Shown in pieces: positions 2-289 of a stretch of DNA of 289 bases. The position numbers were made by a program, and so were the translations under genes. Source of the DNA: Escherichia coli (GTDB taxonomy: Bacteria; Pseudomonadota; Gammaproteobacteria; Enterobacterales; Enterobacteriaceae); assembly GCF_003334385.1 (NCBI RefSeq), contig NZ_QOWN01000213.1; one strand, 5' to 3'. The notes under the pieces are model-generated. The model saw only the letters and a program-made list of their open reading frames with translations. It ran no database searches and was not told the DNA's origin. Numbering within the stretch: position 1 is the stretch's first letter; every line of letters starts with the position of its first letter.

Positions 2-77
2 TGGTGGGTCGTGCAGGATTCGAACCTGCGACCAATTGATTAAAAGTCAACTGCTCTACCAACTGAGCTAACGACCC
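2..77 (-). tRNA. tRNA-Lys, anticodon UUU, complete 76-nt gene with encoded CCA
   Basis: Reverse complement of 2-77 reads GGGTCGTTAGCTCAGTTGGTAGAGCAGTTGACTTTTAATCAATTGGTCGCAGGTTCGAATCCTGCACGACCCACCA. It folds as a canonical cloverleaf: acceptor stem GGGTCGT/ACGACCC, D stem GCTC/GAGC, anticodon stem GTTGA/TCAAT, anticodon loop CTTTTAA with anticodon TTT (plus-strand 42-44 = aaa), variable loop TGGTC, T stem GCAGG/CCTGC with T loop TTCGAAT, and 3' CCA at plus-strand 2-4 (tgg). From memory it is identical to the E. coli tRNA-Lys(UUU) gene family. The paralog cannot be named from the sequence alone; lysZ is possible if this is the lysY-lysZ interval. Confidence 0.97.
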
Positions 78-111
78 ATACGGGTGTTACCTGAAAGATT
101 TTTACTCGGGG

Positions 112-128
112 CCAATCTTTAAGATTGG
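112..128. other. Inverted repeat / hairpin ccaatct-(tta)-agattgg that overlaps the CCA of the orphan tRNA fragment
   Basis: 112-118 ccaatct is the reverse complement of 122-128 agattgg, giving a 7-bp stem with a 3-nt loop (the pairing could notionally extend to 8 bp but that leaves a 1-nt loop). On the minus-strand transcript the orphan CCA is the 5' strand of this stem. Function not established. Confidence 0.45.
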
Positions 129-143
129 TGGGTCGTGCAGGAT
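126..143 (-). repeat. Orphan 18-nt duplicate of the tRNA-Lys 3' end (part of T loop, 3' T stem, 3' acceptor strand, discriminator and CCA) inside the inter-tRNA spacer
   Basis: Plus-strand 126-143 tggtgggtcgtgcaggat is an 18/18 match to 2-19 and 224-241. Identity stops abruptly at 144 (gactc versus tcgaa in the genuine genes). No 5' acceptor strand, D arm or anticodon arm is recognisable upstream of it on the minus strand, so it is not a functional tRNA. Confidence 0.75.
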
Positions 144-157
144 GACTCGCTTCGCTC

Positions 158-184
158 GCCCTACGGGCCGTTGCTGGCGCAACG
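158..184. other. Two adjacent short GC-rich hairpins in the spacer: gccc-tac-gggc (158-168) and cgttgc-tggc-gcaacg (169-184)
   Basis: Read directly from the sequence: a 4-bp stem with 3-nt loop, followed by a 6-bp perfect stem with 4-nt loop. Neither is followed by a T/U tract on either strand. They are probably structural elements of the polycistronic tRNA precursor. Confidence 0.4.
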
Positions 185-197
185 TTATCCTTCACGC

Positions 198-220
198 TTA
201 ACATCTGAGTTTGATGTTAA
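198..220. other. AT-rich inverted repeat ttaacatc-(tgagttt)-gatgttaa, an 8-bp perfect stem with 7-nt loop, 3 nt downstream of the 3' CCA of the upstream tRNA-Lys copy
   Basis: 198-205 ttaacatc is the exact reverse complement of 213-220 gatgttaa. On the minus-strand transcript the hairpin starts 3 nt after the CCA of the 224-289 copy. No U-run follows, so it is not an intrinsic terminator. It is a candidate trailer-processing structure. Confidence 0.45.
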
Positions 221-223
221 AAC

Positions 224-289
224 TGGTGGGTCGTGCAGGATTCGAACCTGCGACCAATTGATTAAAAGTCAACTGCTCTACCAACTGAG
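224..289 (-). tRNA. tRNA-Lys, anticodon UUU, second copy truncated by the window edge (tRNA nt 11-76 present; 5' 10 nt would lie at 290-299)
   Basis: Positions 224-289 are 100% identical to 2-67, and position 223 equals position 1. The D stem/loop remainder, anticodon arm (TTT), variable loop, T arm, acceptor 3' strand and CCA are all present. Only the 5' acceptor strand is missing because the window ends. The repeat period is 222 bp. Confidence 0.93.

Follow-up and report, generated by a model that had tools for sequence, protein, structure and literature searches.

The 18-nt copy of the tRNA-Lys 3′ end in the Escherichia coli lysY–lysZ spacer is part of a tRNA-linked repeat

The 18-nt copy of the tRNA-Lys 3′ end that lies between lysY and lysZ in Escherichia coli belongs to a published tRNA-linked repeat (TLR); both the literature and Rfam already cover the element, its 18-nt copy and its relationship to the tyrT repeats. 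Our analysis adds four points, all drawn from sequence comparison. The 5′ arm predicted to pair with the first 10 nt of the copy differs between tRNA types in step with the copy; where local tRNA alleles vary, in Citrobacter, Hafnia and Rahnella, the copy varies with them; presence or absence of the cassette, between genera as well as within E. coli, has its boundary exactly at the 18-nt repeat; and the sequence upstream of the copy is not a decayed tRNA-Lys. The lysY TLR cassette is very probably a co-transcribed, non-essential structured spacer in which the 18-mer serves both as a helix strand and as a direct repeat for homogenisation and loss.

The window (the whole stretch of DNA analysed, 289 nt) is the E. 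coli lysY–lysZ spacer shown as the antisense strand, with the tRNA genes on the minus strand (Table 1), and is 100% identical to E. coli K-12-type chromosomes by sequence match. According to the annotation of the matching K-12-type locus, lysY and lysZ occupy the fifth and sixth places among the tRNA genes of the lysT operon, an array that contains five identical Lys genes and whose gene number varies between genomes. A promoter and terminator scan of the window returned no promoter-like site and two terminator-like matches, both on the antisense (+) strand, which are simply H1 and a distal-spacer hairpin. The Rfam scan gave significance for tRNA and RtT only; matches to Plastid-ycf2, YrlA and similar families, far under threshold, were dismissed as antisense-tRNA noise.

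Table 1 Features of the 289-nt window (positions are those of the strand shown).
Feature	Position	Strand	Evidence
lysZ, complete tRNA-Lys(UUU)	2..77	-	ARAGORN; Rfam tRNA 79.2 bits; annotation
Distal spacer, 5′ leader of lysZ, outside the cassette; directly 3′ of the lysY CCA in TLR-less E. coli	78..125	-	
18-mer ATCCTGCACGACCCACCA: 143-134, putative P1 3′ strand; 133-126, predicted single-stranded tail identical to the mature tRNA-Lys 3′ end	126..143	-	exact copy; pairing
Linker GAGTC	144-148	-	
Mini-hairpin H3, GC-GAA-GC	149..155	-	covariation
Hairpin H2, GCCC-GTA-GGGC, the family's most conserved block	158..168	-	Rfam RtT alignment; alignment A1
Hairpin H1, CGTTGC-GCCA-GCAACG, in the conserved TLR core	169..184	-	stem common to Lys, Arg, Pro and 5S TLRs
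P1 5′ arm CGTGAAGGAT, pairs with 134-143, one conserved A.G mismatch	187..196	-	centroid fold; covariation
Leader (spacer1)	198..223	-	inverted repeat I6; MFE and centroid folds of the spacer
Hairpin P0, begins 3 nt past the lysY CCA	198-205 with 213-220	-	
lysY, tRNA-Lys(UUU), 3′ 66 nt, cut at the window edge	224..289	-	Rfam tRNA 227-289(-), 54.7 bits, 5′-truncated; RefSeq annotation of the K-12-type locus
Master copy of the repeat, last 18 nt of lysY	224-241	-	

Exact matches to TGGTGGGTCGTGCAGGAT occur on the plus strand of the window at 2–19, 126–143 and 224–241; read on the minus strand, ATCCTGCACGACCCACCA corresponds to A59–A76 of tRNA-Lys(UUU), CCA included. The copy in the spacer lies 80 nt (223..144) downstream of lysY and 48 nt (125..78) upstream of lysZ, and has the same orientation as both. 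None of 200 dinucleotide-preserving shuffles matched the 18-mer, on which ground a chance origin was rejected; coordinates and shuffles thus bear out the first-pass annotation, which had reported an exact, CCA-bearing copy in this orientation about 80 bp and about 48 bp from the two genes. Identity ends after 18 nt, base 144 being G against T at gene base 20, and a weaker similarity (23 of 25 positions, 119–143 against 217–241) extends beyond the CCA and runs 7 nt into the trailer. The same annotation had proposed comparing the copy with its surroundings in related bacteria, and the 18-mer is indeed the more conserved: its identity across genera is 98%, as against 62% and 55% in the flanking spacers.

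The Rfam RtT model (RF00391; gathering score 45) matches the window at 47.6 bits, and at 54.4 bits when the locus context is included; the match overlaps the upstream tRNA and places the model's 5′ domain wrongly onto it, the real 5′ arm lying at 187–196. An origin of this score solely in the overlapped tRNA was ruled out by the similarity of the core to the tyrT, arg and proK units: the spacer and the tyrT units have the common core AACGTTGC-nnnn-GCAACGGCCCG-nAG-GGCGAG, and alignment of the 54 nt preceding the copy with the argQ, proK and tyrT TLR cores gives z = 13 to 25. Four more RtT matches follow the other Lys genes, and a TLR copy stands after all five tRNA-Lys genes of the lysT operon. 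The copy, which had been described as an orphan, instead belongs to a conserved structured element, of which it forms the tail and the 3′ strand and which is found after every one of these genes. PGAP annotates only one of the five, that after lysQ, as an RtT sRNA, and naive readers of the sequence will therefore keep rediscovering the others.

Stenum et al. 2021 (PMC8144298) count 22 TLRs in K-12, spread over ten loci and all with a terminal 18–19 bp identical to the upstream tRNA or rRNA 3′ end; they trace the class to Egan & Landy 1978 and its catalogue to Rudd 1999, and give it no known function. In the strain table of that paper, a deleted interval takes in the TLRs that follow lysT, W, Y, Z and Q, so that the lysY copy is counted, by way of this table, among the 22 catalogued K-12 TLRs. 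Our own census of K-12 loci reproduces TLRs at Lys, Tyr, Ser, Arg, Pro and 5S genes. The assignment of the lysY element to the class follows from its position and strand, its 18-nt 3′ identity, its profile score, its closing helix and its listing in the catalogue. Like the other K-12 TLRs, it lies directly 3′ of a tRNA gene in the same orientation, within a stable-RNA operon, and combines an 18-nt copy with the conserved core. Nothing categorical sets it apart: it is a short form (~73 nt without the leader hairpin, 98 nt with it) that is devoid of the ~40-nt GATGAGAAC...GCGAGAC domain present in the tyrT, proK, serX and Erwinia Lys units.

The tyrT locus with its rtT RNA, previously put forward as a parallel, proves to be the relevant comparison but is a homologue rather than a mere parallel, given an RtT score above threshold and a common core. 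The rttR units of tyrT–tyrV share the homologous core AACGTTGC(C)-loop-(G)GCAACG-[G/A]CCCG-AAG-GG... and a closing helix formed by a 5′ arm and the copied tRNA 3′ end. They differ in being 178-nt tandem repeats that score 133–138 bits and copy 19 nt of tRNA-Tyr, whereas the lysY unit is single, internal to its operon and scores 48–54 bits; one tyrT unit, moreover, has a documented 171-nt RNA and overlaps the tpr ORF.

In the sense direction, the cassette (223..126, minus strand) comprises the P0 leader hairpin, the 5′ arm, H1 to H3, the GAGTC linker and the 18 nt of the upstream tRNA 3′ end. In the RNA, the first 10 nt of the 18-mer and the 5′ arm would close a compact four-helix fold, leaving an 8-nt tail, ...ACCCACCA, predicted to be single-stranded and identical to the mature tRNA end. 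For 55 distinct TLRs of the Lys and Arg types, the share of paired cells is 94%; shuffles give 87%, none of 500 reaching the observed value, and pairing falls to 27–48% when the partners are slid. Changes on both sides affect seven pairs, located in P1 (4 of its 10 pairs), H3 (2 of 3, with 99% of cells paired) and the single closing pair of H1. The P1 5′ arm differs by tRNA type, being GGGGAAGGAT in Tyr, GGGGGGAT in Ser, GGGAGGAT in Arg and GAGGAT in Pro units, and the H3 stem covaries (GAC/GTC, GGC/GCC, GCC/GGC, GCCAC/GTGGC) around loops of GAA, GCAA or UUCG. In other genera, the P0 stem varies yet stays complementary (AACATC/GATGTT, AATGTC/GATATT, AACGTC/GACGTT). The H1 loop varies freely. 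Sense-strand G.U pairs outnumber A.C by 18 to 6. The cross-species loci were found with a pattern derived from H1 and H2, whose conservation is accordingly not unbiased evidence of covariation. Counting against the fold, the A.G mismatch in P1 persists in the Lys copies; the element folds modestly better than shuffles as a single sequence (z = -1.8), and in the MFE fold of the full spacer the partner of the 5′ arm is the distal spacer, not the 18-mer. A mimic of an RNase P minihelix was set aside on inspection, the tail after P1 placing the RCCA inconsistently across tRNA types.

The copy tracks the local tRNA allele. Two tRNA-Lys alleles, U4-A69 and G4-C69, occur in Citrobacter operons; C. 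youngae carries both, and each of its TLR copies matches the gene upstream. Citrobacter FP75 has the G4-C69 form throughout, in its four genes as in the TLR copy. A Hafnia tRNA-Lys variant is likewise reproduced in its TLR, and the same holds for variant tRNA-Arg 3′ ends in Rahnella and Hafnia, where the 5′ arm changes to match. The tail, which follows both the Citrobacter C69 acceptor-stem alleles and the Hafnia T-stem mismatch alleles, makes DNA exchange an easier explanation than independent selected mutations. A general role for pairing between the tail and the 5′ acceptor strand of the downstream tRNA (inverted repeat I3) was set aside, because two Lys TLRs precede tRNA-Val, terminal TLRs precede no tRNA at all and the C. 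youngae copy matches the upstream allele, not the downstream one.

Precise presence and absence at its boundary identify the 18-mer as the distal direct repeat bounding the cassette. E. coli ZJ3920 is missing all five TLRs and retains exactly the K-12 distal spacers of 35, 51, 48 and 33 nt; and E. coli PapRG-06-5 is missing the four internal TLRs, with flanks identical to K-12. Where the TLR is missing, as at two E. coli loci, the lysY–lysZ spacer is 48 nt, the distal spacer alone. The 78-nt empty junction is 100% identical to the K-12 flanks. For this query only single-piece top hits were used, joined BLAST pieces confounding a population count. About one-quarter of E. coli genomes are without the lysY–lysZ copy, some being without all five, and the same precise absences are seen in some Citrobacter and Pseudocitrobacter spacers. 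The comparative data indicate that the 18-mer and the tRNA gene's own 3′ end act as an 18-bp direct repeat, by means of which the cassette stays matched to the local allele, is multiplied in tandem where operons end and is lost precisely. Absence of the 18-mer from orthologous spacers of close relatives had been proposed as a sign of a lineage-specific chance event. The outcome is mixed, with the element present in many Enterobacterales genera and absent from the spacers and genomes just named; it does not amount to a refutation. The absences reflect loss of the cassette at the repeat and not lineage-specific chance. Together with a laboratory strain without any TLR, the natural strains devoid of them imply that selection for the element must be weak, and the conserved structure might benefit the element itself instead of the cell.

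The five identical Lys genes, the variable gene number and the similarity 7 nt past the CCA might also be explained if unequal crossing-over or internal deletion had removed the 5′ 58 nt of a tRNA-Lys gene and left its last 18 nt. We regard such a remnant as very improbable: aligned with nt 1–58 of tRNA-Lys, the 54 nt upstream of the copy score 9 against a shuffled mean of 11.1 (z = -1.2), ARAGORN calls no tRNA at the copy, and the boundary at 18–19 nt recurs at five tRNA types and in many genera, a recurrence that independent decay would not produce. A decayed tRNA-Lys was therefore rejected, the upstream sequence being no better than shuffles in this respect and a strong match to TLR cores. 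Of the recombination scar, one of two readings that the first-pass annotation thought more likely, the involvement of unequal recombination stands; the copy is nonetheless not a scar but part of the conserved element, and the sequence upstream of it retains no residual tRNA-Lys similarity.

As in integrase att sites, the 3′ segment of a tRNA is directly duplicated from the T-loop onwards, here as an identity block running to the CCA like the T-loop-class att cores, and alleles exist with and without the intervening DNA, the empty sites of ZJ3920 and PapRG-06-5 consisting of the tRNA followed by the distal spacer. Such empty-site alleles are not diagnostic, because homologous deletion between direct repeats gives the same result. 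That the copy is one half of an attL/attR pair left by a phage or island using the tRNA-Lys 3′ end is extremely improbable. Only 80 nt separate the repeats, and the ORFs of the window (26–54 codons) overlap tRNA genes or structured spacer and were rejected as credible genes, which agrees with the earlier judgement that a live att site was unlikely for want of space. The insert is a gene-free, structured element common to other tRNA types, it recurs after five adjacent genes within 1.2 kb, its inheritance is mainly vertical, and no integrase is associated with it. A blastn search with the core also turned up, in phage and plasmid collections, almost only misfiled chromosome pieces, and a phage or plasmid origin was set aside.

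This near absence of the core from genuine phage and plasmid records counts equally against a non-autonomous mobile or homing element that would target the T-loop and 3′ end of stable-RNA genes, matching its target through the 5′ arm and the 18-mer and using its hairpins for propagation. The attraction of this idea lies in the occurrence of the same core at six unrelated RNA genes (Lys, Arg, Pro, Tyr, Ser and 5S), always joined at the (A)ATCC of a shared GGTTCGAATCC T-loop, in TLRs on tRNA-Pro(UGG/GGG) of other genera at genes that are bare in K-12, in the precision of presence and absence, and in relatives of the core that are free-standing or in tandem at several unrelated loci in Alcanivorax and Alloalcanivorax and occur at single sampled loci in Marinobacter and Pectobacterium. 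However, no transposase or integrase is evidently associated, any 18-bp direct repeat would give precise loss, and cores of one tRNA type from different genomes cluster more closely (0.74) than cores of different types from one genome (0.71; background 0.65). At any one operon position, the TLRs of different genera look like orthologues, which argues for mainly vertical descent. Mobility of this kind is, on balance, improbable. Within Enterobacterales, copies occur only at the 3′ ends of certain stable-RNA genes.

At the RNA level, the element would be co-transcribed within the 1.1-kb operon transcript and, after the RNase P cut at lysZ, would stay in the 3′ trailer of pre-tRNA-Lys(lysY); by analogy with RtT and RrB, the RNA is probably released or trimmed to end at or just past the copied CCA, and the element as a whole appears dispensable. 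The 5S-linked TLRs RrA, RrB and RrF, downstream of rrnA, rrnB and rrnD, share H1, H2 and a terminal copy of the upstream gene end; RrB has its ends 3 nt past the 5S gene and 3 nt past the repeat, which suggests that the repeat recreates a processing site. Unlike the lysY element, these three copy 5S rRNA, sit between two terminators, contain GGA motifs and bind Hfq and CsrA in vitro. The 3′ETS-leuZ is similarly a by-product of a tRNA-operon transcript able to persist after processing, but has a demonstrated sponge function by base-pairing and is without a tRNA-end copy, whereas the Lys TLRs have no known target or partner.

A rival reading is that the excised TLR persists as a stable small RNA whose CCA end resembles that of a tRNA. 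This RNA would either regulate or sponge in trans or modulate pre-tRNA-Lys 3′ maturation in cis, and functional selection rather than recombination would hold the 18-mer identical to the tRNA. Several observations are compatible with such a role, namely the covarying helices and sense-strand G.U bias, the stronger constraint on the P1 half of the copy than on the tail (4 against 14 mismatches in 111 copies), the survival of the element in many Enterobacterales genera although its own repeat offers a way to be deleted, the 171-nt rtT RNA from tyrT, and, in PMC8144298, the processing of RrA/B/F and their binding of Hfq and CsrA in vitro. The same paper reports that the original rtT phenotype was retracted and that the 19 tRNA-linked TLRs score below 0.01 as CsrA binders, so that these members are predicted non-binders. 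Further evidence against this role comes from the loss of the lysY copy in about one-quarter of E. coli genomes and of all five copies in some, from the way in which the unpaired tail tracks the Citrobacter C69 and Hafnia T-stem alleles, and from the study of the operon by Agrawal et al. 2014 (PMC4176162), which reported no discrete spacer RNA and proposed simple exonucleolytic removal of the trailer. Literature on RttR and on a lysY–lysZ sRNA offered nothing useful. We consider a selected small-RNA function possible but doubtful, and the reading of the cassette as a dispensable spacer that carries its own repeat remains the preferred one.

As a discovery, the lysY element matters little. The question of what TLRs are for is nevertheless sharpened by the 5′-arm compensation, the tracking of alleles, the precise losses of four or five copies and the free-standing relatives outside Enterobacterales. 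One speculative and rather unlikely answer is that TLRs are self-perpetuating cassettes and not passive spacers: a four-hairpin repeat, free-standing in some other gammaproteobacteria, would have become tied to the 3′ ends of stable-RNA genes, with a 5′ arm and an 18–19-nt copy that could be retargeted, allowing copying between genes for the same tRNA and restoration after loss; alternatively or in addition, an RNA with a tRNA-like end would tune the 3′ maturation of the upstream tRNA. If true, this would supply a function or a propagation mechanism for a class of repeats that has been without either since 1978. The TLR-less E. coli strains are natural empty-site alleles and could guide isogenic tests of function. 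Outside Enterobacterales, matches to the search pattern in Paraburkholderia, actinobacteria and others have no tRNA nearby and were treated as chance; those in Paraburkholderia appear within conserved coding sequence.

The spacer between the two tRNA-Lys(UUU) genes, of which the window's + strand is the antisense, carries an exact 18-nt copy of the tRNA-Lys 3' end, as the first-pass annotation had observed. Specifically, TGGTGGGTCGTGCAGGAT occurs three times in the window (2-19, 126-143 and 224-241) and in 0 of 200 dinucleotide-preserving shuffles; its - strand reading, ATCCTGCACGACCCACCA, corresponds to tRNA-Lys nt 59-76, CCA included. The middle copy (hereafter the 18-mer) lies, in transcript orientation, 80 nt past the upstream tRNA-Lys gene and 48 nt ahead of the next, a placement that the annotation had also given correctly. 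The window matches E. coli K-12-type chromosomes at 100% identity, related sequence is present in 5,426/5,426 complete E. coli genomes of the collection, and its two genes are tRNA genes no. 5 and 6 of the operon annotated 3' of cpoB, the lysT operon, the gene order of which was described by Agrawal et al. 2014 (PMC4176162).

An Rfam scan placed an RtT (RF00391) match in this spacer, scoring 47.6 bits for the window and 54.4 bits for the full locus (gathering score, 45), with its 3' limit exactly at the orphan CCA. An RtT match follows every one of the operon's five Lys genes, all terminating in the identical 18-mer; RefSeq annotation marks only the last of the five. Such tRNA-linked repeats (TLRs) are described by Stenum et al. 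2021 (PMC8144298), whose strain table lists TLRs behind lysT, W, Y, Z and Q, and according to whom TLRs have no known function and an early rtT phenotype was retracted. As cited there, TLRs were first observed at tyrT (Egan and Landy 1978) and later catalogued as 22 TLRs at ten K-12 loci (Rudd 1999). Our analysis reproduced the census of K-12 loci: the copied 3' end spans 18 nt for tRNA-Lys, 19 nt for tRNA-Tyr, tRNA-Ser(GGA) and tRNA-Pro(CGG), 18-19 nt for tRNA-Arg(ACG) and 13 nt (exact) for 5S rRNA, and no 3'-end copy was found at the K-12 loci of tRNA-Val, tRNA-Ser(GCU) and argY. Given the Rfam match, the published TLR listing and this census, the lysY-lysZ element is therefore a catalogued member of the known TLR/RtT family, and the feature is already known. 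The first-pass annotation was correct in its observation and right only in part in its interpretation: the comparison with tyrT was relevant, but the tyrT case is a homologue within this family rather than a mere parallel. An origin as a decayed tRNA-Lys gene is effectively excluded, since the 54 nt upstream of the 18-mer are unlike tRNA-Lys nt 1-58 (z = -1.2) and strongly resemble the TLR cores at argQ (z = 25), proK (z = 21) and tyrT (z = 13). An integrase att site is effectively excluded as well.

Features of the lysY element and its flanks in the window
Feature	Sequence	Window position	Strand
lysY, tRNA-Lys(UUU), cut by window edge		224-289	-
Cassette		223-126	-
Leader hairpin P0		220-198	-
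5' arm	CGTGAAGGAT	196-187	-
Hairpin H1	CGTTGC-GCCA-GCAACG	184-169	-
Hairpin H2	GCCC-GTA-GGGC	168-158	-
Hairpin H3	GC-GAA-GC	155-149	-
Linker	GAGTC	148-144	-
18-mer		143-126	-
lysZ, tRNA-Lys(UUU), complete		2-77	-

A ~40-nt domain present in the tyrT, proK and serX units and in the Erwinia Lys unit is missing from the lysY element, a short form; the RtT model was derived from the long form, and in the Rfam alignment its 5' domain falls on the upstream tRNA and includes non-canonical pairs. The 5' arm complements nucleotides 1-10 of the 18-mer (143-134) save for one A.G mismatch, and the final 8 nt of the 18-mer, ACCCACCA, are unpaired in the predicted fold. A separate hairpin is formed by the leader, which joins the tRNA CCA to the 5' arm; in the window (198-220, -) and the orthologous leaders of L102, L042, L073 and L124, its stem varies by genus with complementarity kept (AACATC/GATGTT, AATGTC/GATATT, AACGTC/GACGTT, GACATTG/CAATGTC), and a second leader type (ATCG..GGTGGAA..) occurs at other operon positions.

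Covariation shows the 18-mer to be one strand of a predicted closing helix, P1. In an alignment of 55 distinct short-form Lys and Arg TLRs (A1), standard pairs of the proposed fold fill 94.2% of cells versus 87.1% in shuffles, 0 of 500 of which equalled the observed value, and sliding the partners by 1-3 columns reduces pairing to 27-48% of cells. Two-sided changes affect seven pairs (4 of 10 in P1, 2 of 3 in H3 and the single closing pair of H1), with the proviso that H1 and H2 lay in the search pattern and so are not judgeable from A1. In the K-12 census, the 5' arm fits the copied 3' end of each tRNA type (5' arm / 3' arm: Tyr, GGGGAAGGAT / ATCCTTCCCC; Ser, GGGGGGAT / ATCCCCCC; Arg, GGGAGGAT / ATCCTCCC; Pro, GAGGAT / ATCCTC; Lys, GTGAAGGAT / ATCCTGCAC), and Rahnella and Hafnia, with AATCTTCC... 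as the end of tRNA-Arg, show a changed copy together with a changed 5' arm (GGAAGAT). Hairpin H3 is kept across the stems GAC/GTC, GGC/GCC, GCC/GGC and GCCAC/GTGGC, with loops GAA, GCAA or UUCG. On the sense strand, G.U pairs outnumber A.C (18 versus 6), a bias that points modestly to the transcript, not duplex DNA, as the target of selection. Folded as a single sequence, the element improves only moderately on shuffles (z = -1.8), and in the MFE structure of the whole spacer the 5' arm has a partner other than the 18-mer. That alternative joins window 88-100 to 187-197 (-), setting the 5' arm on AUCUUUCAGG of the distal spacer (between cassette and lysZ); the pairing may be coincidental, because AUCUUUCAGG is conserved in TLR-less genomes too.

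The copy also follows the local tRNA allele. Citrobacter operons contain two functional tRNA-Lys(UUU) alleles, U4-A69 and G4-C69, a compensated acceptor-stem pair (L019 1405-2018; L022; L012). Every TLR copy of C. youngae, which has both alleles, bears the base of its own upstream gene, and Citrobacter FP75 has the G4-C69 form in 4/4 genes and in the TLR copy. In the 3' half of its T stem, the tRNA-Lys of Hafnia paralvei (L121 7-82) has CCCGC, a sequence that would create an A51.C63 mismatch; sequencing error is unlikely, as the copy in the downstream TLR, which ends ~170 nt past the gene, has CCCGC too. Pairing within the TLR cannot explain these Citrobacter and Hafnia cases, and Citrobacter allele position 69 falls in the TLR's unpaired tail. 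The simplest account would be unequal crossing-over or conversion that exchanges DNA between the two 18-bp repeats. The K-12 tandem arrays (three full units at tyrV, three at serX, one unit plus repeated trailer at proK and lysQ) would be the kind of product expected from such exchange.

Some orthologous spacers in other species consist of the K-12 'distal' spacer alone, abutting the tRNA CCA. Empty lysY-lysZ and lysZ-lysQ spacers occur in Citrobacter werkmanii, Citrobacter Cu233 and Pseudocitrobacter, and empty lysT-valT and lysW-valZ spacers in one divergent Escherichia genome; close relatives of genomes with empty spacers contain the full cassette. E. coli ZJ3920 (L129 806-1560) has 7/7 tRNA genes, but its five lysT-operon TLRs are precisely absent: the spacers measure 35, 51, 48 and 33 nt, and the terminal unit is missing. 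E. coli PapRG-06-5 (L130 672-1531) has seven tRNA genes and retains the terminal RtT, with the four internal TLRs gone, and a 78-nt stretch across its empty lysY-lysZ junction matches the K-12 flanks at 100% identity. In both strains, the four internal copies are jointly absent. The TLR-containing junction is matched by 4,197 of 5,426 complete E. coli genomes (~77%). These comparisons show the 18-mer as the boundary both of cassette homogenization with the tRNA gene and of cassette loss, and the two strains provide natural empty-site alleles, potential templates for isogenic constructs.

A core-pattern scan of 100,044 species genomes detected at least 120 loci. Among the matches listed, about half are from Enterobacterales and represent roughly two dozen genera, ranging from Escherichia to Yersinia, Hafnia and Budvicia; there, the core typically sits 38-110 nt 3' of a tRNA gene on the same strand, and the tRNA 3'-end copy ~50 nt beyond the core. 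The tRNA preceding the core in the matches listed is Lys(UUU), Arg(ACG), Pro(CGG/UGG/GGG) or Tyr, and tandem units place the core farther 3'. Again among the matches listed, 95 of the 111 copies with at most two mismatches from the local tRNA are exact, and mismatches over these 111 number 4 in the paired half and 14 in the tail. Between genera, mean identity of Lys spacers is 0.62 for the leader, 0.90 for the body (partly fixed by the search pattern), 0.98 for the 18-mer and 0.55 for the distal spacer. TLRs that occupy the same operon position in different genera look orthologous, as exemplified by the leader type ATCG...GGTGGAA...GTAAAACG, which recurs behind the first Lys gene. Mean identity of cores is 0.90 within a genome and tRNA type, 0.74 for the same type in different genomes, 0.71 for different types in the same genome and 0.65 when both differ. 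The vertical signal in these values, together with the essential absence of the core from phage and plasmid records, makes it improbable that the TLR is a homing or mobile element. From these patterns, we read TLRs as old and mostly vertical, apparently with concerted evolution within arrays and repeated loss via inter-repeat deletion, gain by conversion being conceivable too.

The lysT operon yields a single transcript of ~1,100 nt, in which RNase P cleaves each tRNA 5' end, proceeding 3' to 5'; pre-tRNA-Lys trailers of up to ~150 nt are shortened by RNase II and PNPase and finished by RNase T, and long spacers are cut by RNase E only when RNase P is inactive (PMC4176162). We infer that the lysY TLR would persist as a structured 3' trailer of pre-tRNA-Lys, as supported by analogy with the discrete rtT RNA product and with the RrB 3' end, which maps 3 nt beyond its repeat (PMC8144298). 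On these analogies, the copied tRNA end probably sets a trimming pause or an endonuclease cut site, either of which would yield an RNA ending near window 126. The element is dispensable, because TLR-less strains exist, both natural and engineered, the latter including one with all 22 TLRs deleted (strain table, PMC8144298). That a trans- or cis-acting RNA function is the main reason for TLR conservation seems to us rather unlikely. The comparative details of structure, allele tracking and cassette gain and loss may help work on the role of TLRs, an old question.

Free-standing, tRNA-distant relatives of the TLR core occur in Alcanivorax, Alloalcanivorax (five loci in one genome), Marinobacter and Pectobacterium as single or tandem units of ~77 nt (L027 6300-6560; L026; L092-L096; L066 ~400-520; L087, a tandem pair on the - strand; compare L008 ~540-625), with no Rfam family match at gathering score. 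Their order is an A-rich flank, a AAAAATCGCCGGGAGCGATTTTT hairpin, AACGTTGC-nnnn-GCAACG, GCCCG-nAG-GGT, a GC-rich hairpin and an A-rich flank; the E. coli 5S-linked TLR rrB has the same four hairpins, likewise ordered. Near the catalogued serW TLR remnant (~MG1655 925,836-925,875), a CRISPR-DR4 match (50 bits; gathering score, 35) lies 3' of serW at L003 754-781 (MG1655 925,753-925,780), with sequence TTTCTAAGCTGCCTGTACGGCAGTGAAC and a partial second copy close by; the two copies resemble orphan type I-F CRISPR repeats, situated between clpA and infA. L007 476-555, which lies a few hundred bases from the proK TLR, matches naRNA4 (RF02564) on both strands at 69 bits and is probably a REP-derived element.
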